Source: Macrostomum lignano
Taxonomy: Eukaryota
NCBI GenBank assembly: GCA_002269645.1
Contig: NIVC01002930.1
Coordinates: forward strand, 62,001-126,000
Reading direction: 5' to 3'
DNA: 64,000 bases
Shown: positions 16,058 to 26,618 of the stretch, piece by piece
Numbering within the stretch: the first letter of the stretch is position 1
Layout: each line of letters opens with the position of its first letter
Program-made: the position numbers and the translations under genes
The notes under the pieces: generated by a model
What the model was told of the DNA's origin: nothing
Database searches by the model: none
Seen by the model: the letters and a program-made list of their open reading frames with translations, nothing else

Positions 16058-16913
16058 TGATGTGTCCCTTATTACCCGACTTTCGATAATCAAGGAACAA
16101 TCACTTCTAGCTCAGCAGCTAGGCAACCCAGTAAGTCAACAGAAGGTATTCAATTACCTTGAGTCCTTTGGAGATCTCTCGGAGTAGTTCTCGATTGTCT
16201 TCAGTTGCTCTCGTATAGTCACTTCTGACTTTCGTTTGTAGAGCGGGTCCGATTCTTCTTTCTTCTTCAAATAGTTCCGGCCGGATTCTGTTGCTCGGAC
16301 CAATGGGAAGCTTCCGAATTAACAGTGGGATCCCTGCGCCAAACTGTGGTCTAAATTAAGCCTCCTTCTTCGAGCAGTGCCTCTATGCACTCTAGGTATA
16401 GCTCCGGAAACCACTGATAGTCCTCTAAGATCTATCAGGGGCAGTCCTTCTGGAGACTGCAACCAATGGAGTCTAAACAGACTCAAGAGTCTCAACAGAC
16501 TCAAATAGACTCAAGTCTCAATAGACTTGAGCGAGACGTCTCTAACACAACGGCGCAAATAAGGAAGGCTTACCGCAACAACTCGACCGAGTCTCGATGG
16601 ACTTGGTATATCAGGAAGTCCTCCTAAGGCTTCCTCTTCGGAGCGCTCCTCTTCCGTGGGGAGAATGGCTCCGGTACCGCTTCAGATCGCTTGTATTTAT
16701 AGACAAGTTTTTGATCCAAAATAGTATCATGACAATTCACGTGTTGCGCTAAAAGGGGAAAATGGCTCATGGCGTATTATTCTGGTAACATCTTTTTCTG
16801 GTAGCGTGATTCATTCAAAGCTTAGGCGCACATGCGTGTACTTACTTACTTATAGTAGTATTATACGATTATCTTCTTTTTTCCTTTTTTAACGGGAGGT
16901 AGAACACTCTACA
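16058..16913 (-). repeat. 3' LTR (856 bp)
   Basis: Matches 25764-26618 at offset 9706; by eye only 3 substitutions and one 1-nt indel. Confidence 0.97.
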
Positions 16914-17093: not shown

Positions 17094-17468
17094 TCAAGTG
17101 GCATCAGGTTTGATCCGACACCACTTTCGAAACGTGCAGTCTCGCGGCATACTATCACATAAGGGGCATCCTATAACGCCCCTACTAGCGGTTTGCTTCA
17201 AACAGTGCATGCAAATAAAATGTTGGTGGTTACAATATTGAAACGTGCGCCAAGAATAACAATAGGCACATTGTCGCAAACTATCTCTACAGAGGGGACA
17301 ATTCTGCCATGGCTGAATATAATGTGAATCGCTTAAACATTGTCCGCAAACTTTATGTTCGTTGATGCAAATAGTCGGTGGCTTGACAGCCAAGTCATCA
17401 GTTAAACATATCGGGCAGTCATATAGCTGCTGAGGCTGGGGCGCCTGTTTCGACAGTGCGTTGCTCAT
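17094..17468 (-). CDS. Tandem RING-finger protein (2x C3HC4-like), accessory ORF of the retroelement
   Basis: ATG at 17468, 124 aa: CPIC-x12-C-x3-H-x2-CGQC...CPLC, then CAYC...C-x3-H-x2-CMHC...CPLC. Lies inside the element between the pol stop and the PPT. Confidence 0.8.
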   Translation of the reverse strand: MSNALSKQAPQPQQLYDCPICLTDDLAVKPPTICINEHKVCGQCLSDSHYIQPWQNCPLCRDSLRQCAYCYSWRTFQYCNHQHFICMHCLKQTASRGVIGCPLCDSMPRDCTFRKWCRIKPDAT

Positions 17469-17588: not shown

Positions 17589-20500
17589 CTAGCGTGGTCG
17601 TAGGTTGTAGCCATGTGGCTGGCTCACATCTGTCGTTTGAGTCTCCTCGTGCTTCGTCGCGATGTGGCGGTTCGTTGAACGCGTGCGATCCGCGTTGTCT
17701 AATGTCGGTAGAAACGTCGTGGTGTCAGTGTTGATCTTCTTTAGTCGATGAATGTGTACGTAGAACTGGTGCTGATGTGGATCTTGTACATTAGCCAGGC
17801 GTGCCGTTGTCGGTGACGTTAGTTGGACCACTCGATAGGGTCCTTTATACTTCTGTGCATGTTTATGCGTCTGCTGCGGCGGGTAGTGTAGGTAAACGAT
17901 GTCGCCGGCCGTCAGGGTTGTCGATCTCGCGTCGTTGCCGGTGGTCAGAGCCACCTGGTTGTCAATGTTGTGCTTGGCGATCTTCCATGCGAGGTGTAGC
18001 TGCGTGACAAATTTCTGAATGGAAGTCGGTACTTCCACGTACTGCGATGGTAGCAATTGCTGTGCGAGCAGATTCGGCGGTTGGAAGTCTCGTCCAAACA
18101 TTAGGAAGAATGGCGTATTGTCCGTTGATCGATGAATAGCGCTGTTGTAGGCCATTGTTACAGATTGCAGGTAGATGATCCAGTCTTCCGGCTGTTGGTG
18201 CGCGAAGTGTGTAATCATCTTGTGCAGGTTGCGGTGAAACCTTTCAACCATGTTTGCCTTCGGATTGTAGGTCGATGTGTAGATCTGCGTAATGTTGAGA
18301 ATCCTTACGACTTGCTGAAACAGCTGCGATGTAAACTGCGATCCGTTGTCCGATGTGAGGTTCTTCGGCGTGCCGTACTTGCAAATGATTTCGTTGAAGA
18401 AACTCATTGCCACTGTCTGAGCTGTGATGTCCGGTATCGGTATGGCGATAGCAAACTTCGAGAAGATGTCCAAGGCGGTTAGGATGTAGGTGTAGGCGAT
18501 GCCCTGGAGACAGCTCGGTGGCAGTGGTCCGGTGATGTCGATGCTTAGACAGTCCATTGTAGTCGACTTCGGAATGGACTGTAGCTGCGGTTTCTGTCGT
18601 CGTCCTGTCTTTGATGCAGCACATGAATGGCAGTTGTTGCAATACTGCTTGATGTCGCCGTACATAGTTGGCCAAAAGTAGTATTGTTCCACTCTCGCGA
18701 TGGTCTTTGCGGCCGACAGGTGTCCAGCGAGTGGGTTGTCGTGCAGCTCGTTGAGAATTGCTTGCCGAAACGAATATGGTACGTAGATCTTAGGTTTATT
18801 GTCGCTCATCCAGTAGAGCCGTGACTTATTGATTGTTAGGTGTTGTCGTTGCTTGCGTAGGAATTTTCGTTCCATGGGGCTAAGTTTGATGTTCTTGTCG
18901 TCGTCTTTAACCGCTTGGTAGAAGTTGTCGCGCTCGGTTTCATCCACCAACTCCTTGATGTTAGGGATTGGATGAATGGCGTTGACTTCATAGGCTCTTG
19001 ACAGGGCGTCCGCGGCTTTGTTGGTAATTCCTGGTTTGTAGACGAGTTTGTAGTTGTAATCCTGTATCTTGAGTGTCATCCTGATGAGTCGGTTGTTGGT
19101 CTGTCCTTTTGTAGTTACGACGTAGGTCAATGGTGCATGATCCGTGCGTACTATCGTCTGTATTGGAGAACCATAGATGTAGTAATGAAACTGTCGCAGG
19201 GCGAACAAGACTCCTAGTAGCTCTCGTTCCGTAGCTGACCACTTTGTCTCATTTGGTTTGAGTGCTCGACTGACGTAAGCAATAGGTCGTTCCTTCTTGT
19301 CCTCGGTTTCCTGTAGTTGGACTGCTCTGAGTCCCGTTCCTGAGGCGTCTGTCTCGATGATGAAGGGCTTGTCGAAGTCCGGATGCTGTAGCAGTGCGTC
19401 TGATGTCAGCTGTCGTTTGATTTCGTCGAAACTTTCCTGTTGTCTCTGTGTCCAGTTGTCTTGCTTCCATTTGTCGAACTTGAGCAGGTCGTACAGTGGC
19501 TTTGCTGTCTTTGCGAAGTTAGGTAAGAACTTCCTGAAGTATTGCGCAAGTCCAAGGAATGATTGGACCTTCGTTATACTGGTTGGCGTAGGAAACTTCT
19601 TCACCTTTTCCACGTTGTCTGGGTCCGGTGAGATTCCTTTGGCTGTCACCTGATGTCCCAGGTAACGCACGTTGTCTCGGAAGAATTTGCATTTAGTTGG
19701 TTGTAGCTTCAGACCTTGACGTTGTATAAGCGCGAGGGCCTTCTCCGTCGCTTCATAGAGTCGTTCGAAGTCTTCTCCGTGGGCCAAGATGTCGTCAACA
19801 TAGTGCAACAGGTTCGTGCATCCTGCAAGCATGTATGCTGTTAGTCGGCTCATCGTTGCTGGGCTGTTGCTGAGTCCCATCGGCGATCGATTGTACTCGT
19901 ATACTTGTCCATTGTAGGTTTTGAAAGCCGTGTACTGTCGTGACTCTTTCTCGATTTCAATTTGCCAAAATCCATGACGTAGGTCGAACACCGTGAACAA
20001 TTTTGCCGTGTTGAGCTTTGCTAGTAGTTCGGAGATCTTCGGTAGGCTTTGCTGATCCGTCGGTATGTACTTGTTCAACAGTCTGAAGTCGCATACGAGT
20101 CGTCTTTCGTTTGTCTCCTTCTTCTGTACCAGTAGGCACGGTGAGGAGTAAGCCGAAATAGCTTTGCTGATGATGCCGTGCTTTAGCATTTTATCGATGA
20201 TTTCGTCAAAGTGTTGTTGCAGATGCTTGGCGATCGGGTACGGCTTGCACTGAATTGGTTCCGTGTGCGGCAGAAGTTTGATTTCCTGTTTGATGTCCTT
20301 GGCTCGTCCGATGTCGTAATCATGATGGCAGAAGGCTTCGTTGTACTTCCACAACAGCTGTCGAACTTTCCTCTTTTGCTGTTCCGTAATCGGGCTGTCA
20401 TCCAAATTGATCTTCTTTTGAAATTCTTCCTCTGTTAGTCGTGGAGTCGCTTGTTCAATCAGCATAACCGATGCTTGGGTGTTGAGATGACCGATGCACA

Positions 20501-21338
20501 TTCCTTGTCGTAGATGAACCGTTTCTGTGTTCGGGTTGAAGATTTGTACTGGCAGTTGCTTATCCTTTGCAACCAGCACTAGTGCCGTAGGCATCATGAT
20601 TTGATGTTTTGCCGTGACTCTCCTGTGTGGATCAAATATCATTGCTTCATCTGCCGCGCTGGTCGTTTTCGCTCTGACCCAGCATGCGCTTTCAGGCTGG
20701 ATAATGACATCTTGCTGCAGAGTTACTTTCGGTAGTACTCGAATCTGGTTGATCAGCGGTTGCTCCACCGTGTCGATCCTAAACGTTTGCTTGTTGAAGT
20801 CGAAGGTCAATGGTAGTTGAAGCTGCTTGAACGTGTCGATTCCAACGATGACGTCTTGGTTTGGTAGTCTGTCGATGATGTACGTCGGGACCGTCAGCTG
20901 TTTATTAGCAATTTTCAAGTCGATATCTGCTTTTCCTAGGATGTTGAGTGAATGTCCTCCTGCTCCTGCAACTGCGATTGCTGCTGGTCGTACCGCGAGT
21001 CGTAGCTTGTTGCATAATTGTTGCGAGATGACTGTGATCGAGCTGCCTGAATCCAGTAGTGCTCGACATGGCAAGTTGTTGACAATGACCTGAGCCATTG
21101 CTTTGCCAATCTCGGCGTGTAGCGTACAGACGTAGTTTTCCGGCCATTTTGGCTCGTGCTGTTCTGCTTGATAGTTGGGTGGTTGTATCCTTGGTGCCGT
21201 TGGTGTTGTCGGAATCGATGGATATAGCCGCGTTGCTAGTGTCGGTTGCCCTTGAACCTCACAATGTGCAGTTTCTGTTAGTTCTAAACTGTTGTCGCTT
21301 CCGTTGTCGTTCTTTGCATTATGGCATTCACTGTCTTC
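17589..21338 (-). CDS. pol: Pol: aspartic protease, reverse transcriptase, RNase H, integrase with GPY/F motif
   Basis: LLDSGS (PR); PMGL..SPA and YVDD (RT); ETDAS, ERELL, TDH (RNase H); H..H...C..C and SIDITG / SDNGSQF / ERFHR (IN); KGPYRV; C-terminal YNLRPR. Frame open from 21338; first ATG 21098; uninterrupted for 3.75 kb. Confidence 0.97.
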   Translation of the reverse strand, partial: EDSECHNAKNDNGSDNSLELTETAHCEVQGQPTLATRLYPSIPTTPTAPRIQPPNYQAEQHEPKWPENYVCTLHAEIGKAMAQVIVNNLPCRALLDSGSSITVISQQLCNKLRLAVRPAAIAVAGAGGHSLNILGKADIDLKIANKQLTVPTYIIDRLPNQDVIVGIDTFKQLQLPLTFDFNKQTFRIDTVEQPLINQIRVLPKVTLQQDVIIQPESACWVRAKTTSAADEAMIFDPHRRVTAKHQIMMPTALVLVAKDKQLPVQIFNPNTETVHLRQGMCIGHLNTQASVMLIEQATPRLTEEEFQKKINLDDSPITEQQKRKVRQLLWKYNEAFCHHDYDIGRAKDIKQEIKLLPHTEPIQCKPYPIAKHLQQHFDEIIDKMLKHGIISKAISAYSSPCLLVQKKETNERRLVCDFRLLNKYIPTDQQSLPKISELLAKLNTAKLFTVFDLRHGFWQIEIEKESRQYTAFKTYNGQVYEYNRSPMGLSNSPATMSRLTAYMLAGCTNLLHYVDDILAHGEDFERLYEATEKALALIQRQGLKLQPTKCKFFRDNVRYLGHQVTAKGISPDPDNVEKVKKFPTPTSITKVQSFLGLAQYFRKFLPNFAKTAKPLYDLLKFDKWKQDNWTQRQQESFDEIKRQLTSDALLQHPDFDKPFIIETDASGTGLRAVQLQETEDKKERPIAYVSRALKPNETKWSATERELLGVLFALRQFHYYIYGSPIQTIVRTDHAPLTYVVTTKGQTNNRLIRMTLKIQDYNYKLVYKPGITNKAADALSRAYEVNAIHPIPNIKELVDETERDNFYQAVKDDDKNIKLSPMERKFLRKQRQHLTINKSRLYWMSDNKPKIYVPYSFRQAILNELHDNPLAGHLSAAKTIARVEQYYFWPTMYGDIKQYCNNCHSCAASKTGRRQKPQLQSIPKSTTMDCLSIDITGPLPPSCLQGIAYTYILTALDIFSKFAIAIPIPDITAQTVAMSFFNEIICKYGTPKNLTSDNGSQFTSQLFQQVVRILNITQIYTSTYNPKANMVERFHRNLHKMITHFAHQQPEDWIIYLQSVTMAYNSAIHRSTDNTPFFLMFGRDFQPPNLLAQQLLPSQYVEVPTSIQKFVTQLHLAWKIAKHNIDNQVALTTGNDARSTTLTAGDIVYLHYPPQQTHKHAQKYKGPYRVVQLTSPTTARLANVQDPHQHQFYVHIHRLKKINTDTTTFLPTLDNADRTRSTNRHIATKHEETQTTDVSQPHGYNLRPR

Positions 21339-23641
21339 TTAGCTCTTGGACAAGTTTGACTGAAGCACCGTACGATCGATGAAATGATGAAGATTGCCGT
21401 GACAATCCACACAATGCAAGCACCGTAGAAGATGAATCCTTGATAGAGACTGCCTCTTCCATTGAGCAGCTCCCAGAAGCTATTTGTCCAAAATGATTTG
21501 ATGGCGCTGTCCATTGAAACAAGGACGGGAAATCTTCCTGTCCCGGTTCCTTTGTCCTTTCTTGTGAACAGCTGGTGAATCATCTTGCGTTGGGTGATGA
21601 ACGCTTGCAAGAAGTCGTTGATCGTCCATCCTGGTGTTATCTCGTCAAGTTGGATATCGGCGAATGGCGTATACTTCGTTCTGTTGAATCGGATTTTCAA
21701 ATCCTCCATGTCGTAGTTTTCGTCGACGATTACTTCCGGTTCTGTGACGTTTGCTGTCGTTCCAGTTGTTTTGATGACGTGTAGTGCATTGTCCAGTTGA
21801 TAGTAGTTTGCTGCCGTGGTGCAAGGTCTCGGTATTGCGGTGCCAACGATGATGTTGTGTACCGTGTCCAAGAATCCCTGAATTCGTTTTCCTTCGTAGA
21901 ACGCTTCAATCCTTGGCTTGTCGTAGCAGGTTGTTGACGTGTTCGACGGCAAGATGTTAAAGTGCTGTATCGGCGTGCACTTGTATATTAACAGATGCTC
22001 GTATATTGGAACTGCCAAAACGTTCGTCATTCCGGTGATTTTACGAAAAGTCATCGTAGGGTTGACATAGTAGTTTTGTCTGGCATAATTTAAGTTGATT
22101 GCGTGCATTTTGCAAGTTAGCTGGACCAGTGTTCGATGCAAGTGGTTTAACTGGTTGTGTAGATTGTGATCCAAAGCCGTTATCTTTGCTGACAGTAGTC
22201 GGTTTGACACCAGTTTGGGACGTTCGATGTCACGTCGTCGTCTGTTCTGTTGTTCCTGCTGTTGATACGTTCCGTTGATGATCGCCAGAAAGGTTTGTTT
22301 GTCGTCATCTTTTACGTAGACTGGTATCTCTTGTTCCGAGATGAATAGTGTCTTGTCTGTATCCTTGCATTTCAGTTTTTGCTCGACTGGTTTCTTTTGA
22401 AACGTCAGTGCCAAGTCTCCTGACTTTGCCAAAAACGTATTTGACAGTAGTCCTCCTTCAACTGTGTGATACTTTTGAAGCTTGCAGTCAATTTCCGGCT
22501 CAACTTCCCACGCGAAGAAGTATTGTCGTGACTTAGATGGTTCTTCATATCGTGAGTCGCCTCTGCGTATAATTTGCCATCGATAGTCTTGATGATATGT
22601 TGGACTCAACGGTAAGCTGTATAGTTCCTCATTCCGCAGTATCGGCGTTGGACACCATCCTTTGCTGTATCGGCAGTCGCTTAATTGCAGTTGTAGCGAC
22701 TCCATTTTTTCAAAAGGATTGTGATAGAATGGAATATTCCTGATTAGGTAACTGTTTCGTGTCATGTAGTTAGTCCATGCTTCCGAAAAGTGTACATATC
22801 GTCCGTTTGCTGAGTTCTTCGTTCGGTAAAGTTGTGCCTCCCCCACTTTCTCATCCGGTTCTAGCTGACCATCCTTTGAGAACAGTGTTTGGTTCCATTG
22901 TAGACATTCAGCGTGCGACACATGTAGTTCGTGTTGCCAAAATCGAATTCTGTTCCACTGTCCTCGCCAAACTTTTTCCACTAGGTGCTTGTCTCTAAAG
23001 CACACTATTCCGAGTTGTCGATGCTTCTTGATGTTAGCTTTGTAGAGATCAATTGTGATCTTCTTTGGCTTCGTCTGGTTTGTCTTGAAGTAGCTGCATT
23101 TGATGTCGGTTGGTATCTTGTAGATCATTGGTTGGATATGCGCATCCGTTGGACATATCATTGGTTTCTCCATTGCCGTTGCTTTGGCGACTACTGCTAT
23201 CAGTAGTATCACGATGATCCAGAGCAGCCAGTTTTTCCACTTCTTGGACCTTGCCGTTGTCTTTGCTGGCATTGGCTGCGATTGCCATTCGTTATCCTCC
23301 ATGTCCGCATCGTATTCTTTCGGTTGTTCCATTGGCTGATTCAGGCGGAAGGCTTCTGATTTGCTTTGCTCTTTGGTTATTTCAGTATCTTCGTCTGTAG
23401 CTTCTTCCGATGTTTCCGTTGTTTCACTCCATTGCGTTTGGTATCTTTTCTCTGCCTTGTAGTCGACCGTTTGAATATAGGCTTCACCATTTCGTTTGTA
23501 TCGGATCTCGTAGCATTCGTCGCTGTCGGAACTCGGCTTTTCTTTCATTTGTTCTTTTTCCATTTCTTCATCTTTCCATTGTATTTCGTAGCCTTGATCG
23601 CTGTCGGAACTTAGATTTTCCGCTCTCAGTTCTTCCTGCAT
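21284..23641 (-). CDS. env: Env-like membrane glycoprotein, probably class III (herpes gB / chuvirus-like) fusogen
   Basis: 785-aa ORF: acidic leader, internal signal/TM (WLLWIIVILLIAVVAKATA, ~23174-23230), Cys-rich ectodomain with N-glycosylation sequons, furin site RRRR (22232-22243), NPT...R motif, C-terminal TM (FIFYGACIVWIVTAIFII, ~21378-21441). Confidence 0.85.
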   Translation of the reverse strand: MQEELRAENLSSDSDQGYEIQWKDEEMEKEQMKEKPSSDSDECYEIRYKRNGEAYIQTVDYKAEKRYQTQWSETTETSEEATDEDTEITKEQSKSEAFRLNQPMEQPKEYDADMEDNEWQSQPMPAKTTARSKKWKNWLLWIIVILLIAVVAKATAMEKPMICPTDAHIQPMIYKIPTDIKCSYFKTNQTKPKKITIDLYKANIKKHRQLGIVCFRDKHLVEKVWRGQWNRIRFWQHELHVSHAECLQWNQTLFSKDGQLEPDEKVGEAQLYRTKNSANGRYVHFSEAWTNYMTRNSYLIRNIPFYHNPFEKMESLQLQLSDCRYSKGWCPTPILRNEELYSLPLSPTYHQDYRWQIIRRGDSRYEEPSKSRQYFFAWEVEPEIDCKLQKYHTVEGGLLSNTFLAKSGDLALTFQKKPVEQKLKCKDTDKTLFISEQEIPVYVKDDDKQTFLAIINGTYQQQEQQNRRRRDIERPKLVSNRLLSAKITALDHNLHNQLNHLHRTLVQLTCKMHAINLNYARQNYYVNPTMTFRKITGMTNVLAVPIYEHLLIYKCTPIQHFNILPSNTSTTCYDKPRIEAFYEGKRIQGFLDTVHNIIVGTAIPRPCTTAANYYQLDNALHVIKTTGTTANVTEPEVIVDENYDMEDLKIRFNRTKYTPFADIQLDEITPGWTINDFLQAFITQRKMIHQLFTRKDKGTGTGRFPVLVSMDSAIKSFWTNSFWELLNGRGSLYQGFIFYGACIVWIVTAIFIISSIVRCFSQTCPRAKKTVNAIMQRTTTEATTV

Positions 23642-25057
23642 TCCTTCTTCGGCTCGGTATCCGTTCGTGCATCATGCACCTCGCAGTCGTGATCGTTGCC
23701 GTAACTTATACATTCTTCTTCTTCCTTCATTTCTTTGTCTTTCGTGCTTGTTTTGTTGTCATCCACTGTTGTCGATTCATAGTTGTTTTGTCTGCCAGTC
23801 TTCATCTTTTCTTCGTTGCCGGTGTCGCTCTCCGCCTCCTCCCTTTTTTGTGATTTACTTTCTTCCTGTTTTCTCTGCTGTCTCCGGTGGTCTCTTTTAA
23901 TTCGATCATTTCGGTTTCATTCGCCTCTTCTGTGTTGTCAGTGTTGTCCTCGTGCGTCGTCTTCTTTTCGATCAAGCTGATGTCAAGTTCCGGGACTGTG
24001 AAGTCCATTTCCAAGTCGTCAATTGTGAACACTTGCTGTTCCTGCTGCTCATTTTCCGGTGTGTACGTGATGGCATTCGCGTATCGTGGCATTGCTTGCG
24101 TTGGCTGTCTTTGTGCGTACCTGGCATTGCGTGGCCTGTAGCCATTATTTCTGAAGCGGCCGTCATTTCCGAGCGGCCATCATTTCCGAAGCGGCCATCC
24201 TTTCCGAAGCGTCTCATGTCTTGTTGGCGATTTTGATATTGCTGCCATGGTTTCTGCGGCTTTGATTGTTGAATATCTGTCGCGGCTTGTCGTATCTTGT
24301 TGACCAATGGGACAATTAATCTGATAATGTCCTTCTTGTCCGCAGTAGTAACATCTGGCTGAGGCTTGTTCATTTCGTCTTTTTTGTTCGGCGATAGCAG
24401 CTGTCTGGTGCTGCATTAATTGTTTAATTGCTGCGTCAGTTTCTGCACTTCATTGTTGCCTGTCGTCATTAATGGGGCACTGGCTTCCCATTGCATTCCG
24501 CACCGCAAAAGGTCTTCTTCGGTTTCGATATTTTCACGCAAAAGTCTATCCCGAAGTGACGGCTGTGCGTTGTTTATTACGTGCAGGATGAGGTTTTGTT
24601 CGCGATCCATCAATCGTTGTCTTTCTCTGGCGGCCAATTCTGCCGCTCCCAGTGGCGGTTGGTCCGCAGCTTGCAGCGGTGGCTGATGCAGTGCCTTAAT
24701 TATCTGGCGGATATCGTCCACAAAGGCGAGGAAGGATTCTGTTGCTTGCATCCTTCTGTTATGTAACTTGTGCAGCAGCACTGATCTGTTTGTGCCGCAA
24801 CGGTTGAAATGCGCGCGCAGTTGAATGATTAGTGCTGGATAATTTTGCTGTGTTGCCGCATCCAGCTTGCCGTAAATTTCTCGCGCAGTACCTTGGAGAA
24901 GAGGTGGCAGCAGCTGTGCTTTCTCTGGATTTTGTAGGTTGTATTCCCTACATACCAGGTCAAAGTGGTCGACAAATGTGTTAAAATCTTTCTCCATCGA
25001 GAAGGTACCGACCGTTTCTTTGATGTCTCTGTGTACCGTTGGATTGCGCCGCGCCAT
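23633..25057 (-). CDS. gag: Gag (capsid, CCHC nucleocapsid, Gly/Arg-rich and acidic linker), broken by 1-nt frameshifts
   Basis: Capsid-like segment 25057-24416 (F..FVDHFDLVC..Y......KAQLLP.LLQGTAREIY); zinc knuckle CYYCGQEGHYQINC at ~24310-24355; FG(K/N)DGR repeats; continues through shifted frames into the env leader. Confidence 0.85.
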
Positions 25058-25743: not shown

Positions 25744-25761
25744 GAGAGGGCGAGATCACCA
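25744..25761 (-). promoter_or_regulatory. Primer-binding site
   Basis: Minus strand: LTR end ...CATCA, 2-nt spacer, then TGGTGATCTCGCCC. TGG pairs with tRNA CCA; closest to the tRNA-Trp-type PBS TGGTGACC, but the tRNA identity is uncertain. Confidence 0.7.
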
Positions 25762-25763
25762 AT

Positions 25764-26618
25764 TGATGTGTTCCTTATTACCCGACTTTCGATAATCAAG
25801 GAACAATCACTTCTAGCTCAGCAGCTAGGCAACCCAGTAAGTCAACAGAAGGTATTCAATTACCTTGAGTCCTTTGGAGATCTCTCGGAGTAGTTCTCGA
25901 TTGTCTTCAGTTGCTCTCGTATAGTCACTTCTGACTTTCGTTTGTAGAGCGGGTCCGATTCTTCTTTCTTCTTCAAATAGTTCCGGCCGGATTCTGTCGC
26001 TCGGACCAATGGGAAGCTTCCGAATTAACAGTGGGATCCCTGCGCCAAACTGCGGTCTAAATTAAGCCTCCTTCTTCGAGCAGTGCCTCTATGCACTCTA
26101 GGTATAGCTCCGGAAACCACTGATAGTCCTCTAAGATCTATCAGGGGCAGTCCTTCTGGAGACTGCAACCAATGGAGTCTAAACAGACTCAAGAGTCTCA
26201 ACAGACTCAAATAGACTCAAGTCTCAATAGACTTGAGCGAGACGTCTCTAACACAACGGCGCAAATAAGGAAGGCTTACCGCAACAACTCGACCGAGTCT
26301 CGATGACTTGGTATATCAGGAAGTCCTCCTAAGGCTTCCTCTTCGGAGCGCTCCTCTTCCGTGGGGAGAATGGCTCCGGTACCGCTTCAGATCGCTTGTA
26401 TTTATAGACAAGTTTTTGATCCAAAATAGTATCATGACAATTCACGTGTTGCGCTAAAAGGGGAAAATGGCTCATGGCGTATTATTCTGGTAACATCTTT
26501 TTCTGGTAGCGTGATTCATTCAAAGCTTAGGCGCACATGCGTGTACTTACTTACTTATAGTAGTATTATACGATTATCTTCTTTTTTCCTTTTTTAACGG
26601 GAGGTAGAACACTCTACA
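25764..26618 (-). repeat. 5' LTR (855 bp)
   Basis: Copy of 16058-16913; followed by the ATTG TSD at 26619-26622. Confidence 0.97.

Follow-up and report, generated by a model that had tools for sequence, protein, structure and literature searches.

Three ESCRT late-domain-type motifs, LYPSI, PTAP and PPNY, lie together in the predicted cytoplasmic tail that joins Env to Pol in a gag-env-pol retrotransposon of the window, the 64,000-nt stretch of Macrostomum lignano DNA analyzed here, and they probably act as late domains that recruit host ESCRT to release enveloped particles. Judged from sequence, this reading is given a probability of roughly 0.6. HIV and Ebola virus bud from cells with the help of motifs of this kind. 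Use of ESCRT for enveloped particles is likely since distant relatives of the element carry such motifs at the same place. The parts of the element are listed below in window positions, following the minus strand.

26622-26619 and 16057-16054: target duplication CAAT, 4 bp
25764..26618, minus strand: 5' LTR with TG...CA ends, 851/857 aligned positions the same as in the 3' LTR
25750..25761, minus strand: primer-binding site; its reverse complement is the 12-mer given for Mlig_errantivirus_2
23630..25057, minus strand: gag, with a CCHC zinc knuckle (zf-CCHC, E 7.8e-6) and an acidic linker to env; in several frames in the window copy
21284..23671, minus strand: env ORF, class III (herpes gB / Monjiviricetes-type) fusion glycoprotein (PF24664 and gB profile matches)
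about 23230-23174, minus strand: internal signal segment of Env, hydrophobic, near its start
22243-22232, minus strand: RRRR furin-type site of Env
21383..21439, minus strand: predicted C-terminal membrane anchor of Env (hydropathy window)
21141..21382, minus strand: predicted cytoplasmic tail/linker from Env anchor to protease, 79 residues in P0011; frame of the window copy broken at ~21,300
17589..21338, minus strand: pol ORF, with protease, RT, RNase H and integrase in Ty3/gypsy order (Pfam on P0001)
21213..21227, minus strand: LYPSI, a YPx[L/I] motif of ALIX type (motif match); a YxxPhi sorting signal also fits
21192..21203, minus strand: PTAP motif, TSG101 type (motif match)
21171..21182, minus strand: PPNY, a PPxY motif of Nedd4 WW type (motif match)
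21141..21146, minus strand: Trp-Pro dipeptide 31 residues ahead of the catalytic Asp, at which the protease may be cleaved at its N-terminus
17094..17468, minus strand: 124-codon ORF after pol, within the element; its two RING-like Cys/His clusters lie in tandem (zf-RING_2, E 0.0028, below cut-off)
16058..16913, minus strand: 3' LTR with TG...CA ends; polypurine tract just before it, at about 16928-16917

The near identity of the LTRs, their TG...CA ends and the flanking CAAT duplication argue for a young insertion. The protease-RT-RNase H-integrase order, the two LTRs, the primer-binding site, the polypurine tract and the target duplication are those of Ty3/gypsy elements (Metaviridae), and env lies between gag and pol, as in errantiviruses of the GAG-ENV-POL type. 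Env matched PF24664 at E 1.7e-5, under the curated cut-off, while a profile of 20 Env relatives matched herpesvirus gB chains, the best being EBV gB (E 1e-10); the Atlas lead for Env was 0.86. By hydropathy the Env ectodomain is flanked by two hydrophobic segments, and it is predicted to be class III and gB-like. The acidic linker between gag and env contains a 78-nt tandem duplication (23495-23650). The RING-like ORF (17468-17094, minus strand), with an Atlas score of 0.91 to viral RING clusters, could encode a ubiquitin ligase that helps budding or opposes the host; several loose contig ends near 17,500 suggest that copies differ around it. Outside the element, positions 28100-64000 hold dense minisatellite arrays with units of 8-45 nt, which give many long spurious ORFs.

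The minus strand at 21227-21171 reads LYPSIPTTPTAPRIQPPNY and carries all three motifs in one frame within 19 residues, and the positions first reported for them (LYPSI 21227-21213, PTAP 21203-21192, PPNY 21182-21171) were exact. The block belongs to the 1249-codon pol ORF (21338-17589, minus strand) and lies upstream of the first ATG of that ORF, at 21098; the pol frame contains a single instance of each motif, the env frame none. The late-domain patterns P[TS]AP, PPxY and YPx[L/I] were all matched by the block. LYPSI had been regarded as an imperfect match to LYPxL; it is instead a proper match, given that YPx[L/I] has been published as a motif of PalA/ALIX type (PMC3346829) and that the late domain of Rous sarcoma virus is LYPSL (PMC8402826), as stated in the sections of these papers covered here.

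Continuity of Env and Pol was compared across copies. In the window copy env ends at 21284, and pol follows in a different frame, with the break near 21,300. In three deposited copies, P0003 (ALD16272.1), P0012 (ALD16273.1, 1488 aa) and P0011 (PAA64473.1, 1914 aa), env, tail, motifs and pol form a single ORF with an identical motif block, and contigs from 4/4 runs carry a one-letter indel relative to the window near 21,300. Since the run contigs differ there by one-letter indels, the frame breaks are a feature of the window copy or of its assembly; other contigs also differ from the window by one-letter indels at several places in gag. The original prediction of an env-pol fusion is thus supported at the level of reading frames, and since env, motifs and pol form one protein in the three deposited copies, the motifs map to the predicted cytoplasmic tail that links the Env anchor to the protease, where they had been placed. 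This is predicted to be a cytoplasmic, exposed position in a structural polyprotein, after the C-terminal anchor and before the protease. That the copies share an identical block carries no information, because the whole 79-residue tail has only 4 differences between them. A protein labelled M. lignano was identical over the searched stretch of pol. In P0014 (Env 52% identical) and P0015, gag continues into env in one frame. Among 63 Env matches, the anchor is followed by a protease in one protein in 19, a CCHC knuckle is present in 27, and 12 have both.

Other ways of producing the tail, or of removing it, were considered. The gene model P0013 omits exactly the motif block by skipping 99 in-frame nt bounded by GT and AG (21262-21164, minus strand), but it also skips parts of env and RT and is read as an artefact, so that a 99-nt intron is improbable. 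Neither a gag-pol splice joint nor the 99-nt skip was among the 6 joints listed in the four runs, three of them presumed to be RNA, whose contigs drop rare forms. Inspection by eye of the 55-nt env/pol overlap found no X XXY YYZ heptamer for a programmed -1 frameshift, and such a frameshift is not needed because other copies are one ORF. The catalytic Asp is usually preceded by 25-37 residues. The first ATG of pol (21098) lies just 15 codons before the Asp of the DSG at 21053-21045, short of that length, and an independent start there was rejected.

Shuffling was used to ask how often the cluster would arise by chance. All three motif types were found at a frequency of 1e-5 in 200,000 shuffles of the 79-residue tail and of 4.7e-4 in shuffles of the 19-residue block itself. 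For the 1914-residue polyprotein P0011, the triple within 25 residues was obtained in 0, 1 and 7 of 20,000 shuffles of the whole chain, of 50-residue blocks and of 25-residue blocks, respectively. The six frames of the window contain 34 P[TS]AP, 12 PPxY and 84 YPx(1-3)[LI] matches, and the only triple among them is this cluster. The claim that three motif types within 19 residues are unlikely to be chance is therefore borne out by the tail, block and whole-polyprotein shuffles, all of them post hoc, since the cluster was already known when they were run; independent evidence comes from the test on the tails of relatives.

To obtain these tails, Env was searched against 1.84 billion representatives, yielding the 63 matches, mostly 22-30% identical and many of them fragments or gene models. 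An anchor was found automatically in 43; removal of the model from the element's own family and of one 6-residue tail left 41, and removal of three tails whose hydrophobic window was judged by eye not to be an anchor left 38. P[TS]AP was present in 6/38 tails against 0.33-0.56 expected (6/41 with the three by-eye removals kept in), a count reached in 0 of 5,000 shuffles of whole tails or of 25-, 15- or 10-residue blocks. With P0015 and P0018 counted once, 5 cases remain (Poisson p 3e-4). The density of P[TS]AP was 1.58 per 1,000 residues in tails and 0.13 in the remaining protein, and anagrams of P, P, A and S/T scored 0-1, except [ST]APP, which scored 5 and overlaps PTAPP. YPxL was found in 5/38 tails against 0.63-0.75 expected, as reached in 1-4 of 5,000 shuffles; one of the five sits on the boundary with the anchor, and when the first five tail residues are left out the count is 4 against 0.52 expected. 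The longer form [LI]YPx[LI] was present in 3/38 (0.14 expected). PPxY, also at 3/38, was not significant (0.9-1.1 expected; 266-407 of 5,000 shuffles reach 3). The expectation that the motifs would be conserved in relatives thus holds in part: P[TS]AP and LYPxL recur, whereas PPxY is not significantly enriched and the three-motif cluster was seen only in the window family.

The excess was not found in the Gag-side linkers (n=24; 1 P[TS]AP and 2 PPxY, not above shuffles) or in the Pol regions (n=18), and the Gag part of the family model P0013 has zero P[TS]AP, PPxY or YPx(1-3)L. Gag-side late domains were rejected on the linker counts. In the lumenal ectodomains P[TS]AP was counted twice, with 0.22 expected (9 of 500 shuffles), each time in a loop that precedes a conserved cysteine; because of this excess, P[TS]AP may be over-represented without function. 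No DNA loci of the relatives were found in viral contigs or metagenome contigs, and wider alignments offered no conserved stretch of use.

A quick tree was made from the 400 residues up to the anchor (40 rows). Within the element's own Env clade (SH-aLRT 99), P[TS]AP is present in 4/4 members, one tail being placed by eye, and these span long branches. Four further cases of P[TS]AP fall on separate branches; two of these carry the names of nematode hosts, Haemonchus contortus and Caenorhabditis angaria. P0015, a single gag-env-pol ORF of 2852 aa, represents another family of M. lignano and is 31% identical over 1617 columns; its linker has PSAPP followed by LYPTL, the reverse of the order in the window family, and its tail can be aligned only by opening long gaps. 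Such a change of order is the behavior of short linear motifs under selection, as these putative motifs would be. Several other features of the relatives were observed. In P0015 the furin site is preceded by a long, mucin-like insert rich in Thr, at residues about 1030-1180, such as might form a glycan shield. P0063 has an overlapping PSAPLPPY at residue 1527, upstream of the first hydrophobic segment of Env; P0080 and P0081 have LYPNL at residue 126, near the N-terminus, and the tail of P0080 also has PSAP. A gammaproteobacterial MAG is the recorded source of P0087, a gag-env-pol polyprotein of 3336 aa; this is probably animal DNA in a bacterial bin.

Sorting signals are usual in the tails of glycoproteins, which is where these motifs are placed. 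The motifs might accordingly bind ESCRT and Nedd4 proteins yet steer traffic or turnover of Env-Pol, or movement of particles inside the cell, with no release from it: YPSI could act as a YxxPhi endocytosis signal, PPNY could direct ubiquitination, and sorting could be into multivesicular bodies. Strict motifs are absent from most relatives (28/38 tails, and 13/18 of those complete to the protease), in keeping with such a role, and in LINE-1 a YPXnL motif makes contact with ALIX without leaving the cell, according to the portion of PMC5478143 covered. Generic YxxPhi is not enriched in tails, however (19 against 16.5 expected), whereas the ALIX-shaped form is, and PTAPP or PSAPP is found in 3/38 tails against 0.08 expected. 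Since the gB-type fusogen is intact, with its furin site and anchor, an enveloped stage is implied, and on balance a purely intracellular role is a serious but clearly less probable explanation than particle release.

Retroviral proteases cleave aromatic-Pro bonds, and it is also conceivable, though improbable, that PTAP is the only true ESCRT motif, LYPSI being a cleavage site for the element's own protease and PPNY incidental. WP and WPxL are enriched in tails as YPxL is (14 against 4.3 and 4 against 0.35 expected), so that aromatic-Pro-x-Leu may be retained for another reason; YP or WP is found 31-46 residues before the catalytic Asp in 6/18 relatives complete to the protease, and PPxY is the motif that did not reach significance. 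Against this, FP and FPxL showed no enrichment in the relatives' tails, the YP of LYPSI lies 57 residues before the catalytic Asp, the separate WP being the one at 31 residues, and the window element, P0015 and P0033 all have [LI]YPx[LI] together with such a separate downstream WP. That the cluster arose by chance in a disordered spacer rich in Pro and Thr, and has no specific function, is the least probable account, for although tails are Pro-rich (9.2% against 5.7%), the cluster was picked by eye, P[TS]AP has its 34 six-frame matches and two PTAPs occur in ectodomains, the excess survived composition-keeping and block shuffles and the anagram control, is specific to the region, and includes P[TS]AP in every member of the element's own clade over long branches.

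Release of enveloped particles through late domains, the preferred reading, would proceed as follows. The element would make a single Gag-Env-Pol chain, whose first hydrophobic segment, following Gag, would pass the ectodomain into the ER lumen and whose second would return the chain, so that Gag and tail-Pol would end up on the cytoplasmic face. Env trimers and the capsid would then display many tails at the bud, where PTAP would engage TSG101 (ESCRT-I), LYPSI would engage ALIX and PPNY would engage a Nedd4-type ligase. ESCRT-III would sever the neck of the bud, either at the plasma membrane or during budding into endosomes, and the protease would free itself, probably at the Trp-Pro behind the motifs, and then mature the particle. 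More tentatively, and with the odds somewhat against so broad a statement, gag-env-pol Ty3/gypsy elements of flatworms and nematodes may be budding infectious agents built on one twice-membrane-spanning chain with late domains in the Env tail, a separate invention of retrovirus-style exit of which the window family, with three motif classes and a double-RING gene, would be the most complete example.

An intact env provides a way into a cell, not out of it, and at issue is whether env-carrying Ty3/gypsy elements outside insects leave the cell. Late-domain motifs kept at a single position in lineages of both flatworms and nematodes point to an exit route, and, if true, late domains in the Env tail would explain membrane assembly of a single Gag-Env-Pol chain; budding is one among several possible uses of an ESCRT-binding tail. 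The motifs also offer a simple handle, by peptide binding or ESCRT knock-down, in M. lignano, for which RNAi and transgenesis are available, and perhaps in Caenorhabditis. In a literature search with subscription journals outside its coverage, no paper was found on ESCRT late domains in env-carrying gypsy LTR retrotransposons; a query for errantivirus with ESCRT, budding or late domain returned no errantivirus among the best 15 of 484 matches, and no paper was found on the envelope of M. lignano LTR retrotransposons. The sections covered of the Macrostomum papers PMC12801592 and PMC4604429 hold nothing on env or the window family, and those of PMC10309623 and PMC5408684 do not mention late domains. 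Placement of late domains on a fusogen tail continuing into Pol is likewise absent from the covered part of the review PMC8402826. Both the class of element and the motif classes are known; the placement and the cross-phylum pattern were not found described, and the predicted motifs are likely to be real late domains.

The closest known systems are elements of the same kind. Ty3/gypsy elements of GAG-ENV-POL type with a gB-type ENV are described from flatworms, nematodes and bryozoans in the available text of PMC13524379 (eLife RP108449), which catalogues Platyhelminthes_Rhabditophora_Mlig_errantivirus_2 with an LTR of 864 nt, an LTR spacing of 9,727 nt and 16 copies; in the table of clades of that paper, 9 flatworm, 36 nematode and 10 bryozoan rows are of this kind, and the terms late domain, budding, cytoplasmic, fused, single ORF, frameshift, polyprotein and RING are absent from its main text. 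As catalogued there, Mlig_errantivirus_2 shares with the window element its species, a gB-type Env and the primer-binding 12-mer, and differs slightly in LTR length (864 against 855 nt) and LTR spacing (9,727 against 9,705). Judged by the landmarks of primer-binding site, LTR length and spacing, the window element very probably belongs to this family. Non-canonical endogenous retroviruses of nematodes (Sacco et al. 2022, doi 10.1099/jgv.0.001739, as cited in PMC13524379) have an ENV captured from an RNA-virus glycoprotein and placed before POL, and the ENV-before-POL order is common to the window element. Several of the Env matches obtained here were labelled Haemonchus, Caenorhabditis or Ditylenchus.

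In HIV, p6 stands at the junction of Gag and protease. The tail of the window element precedes the protease as p6 does, but with env inserted upstream. LINE-1 ORF1p offers a second likeness, since LINE-1 is a retrotransposon and employs a late-domain motif together with ESCRT, through YPXnL and ALIX; in the covered text of PMC5478143, LINE-1 differs from the window element in being non-LTR and envelope-less, with one motif and a proposed intracellular action. The nearest parallel for the motifs themselves is retroviral Gag, in which the same three classes occur, several together in a short Pro-rich spacer (PMC8402826). As listed in the covered part of that review, HIV-1 p6 has PTAP and LYPXnL, MLV has PSAP, LYPAL and PPPY, Rous sarcoma virus has PPPY and LYPSL, and late domains are also present in HERV-K(HML-2). 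Retroviruses often have multiple late domains that are interchangeable and position-independent, MLV having all three classes (PMC8402826). Unlike those of retroviral Gag, the motifs of the window element, known here from sequence, come after the Env anchor and belong to a Metaviridae-type chain that runs on into Pol.
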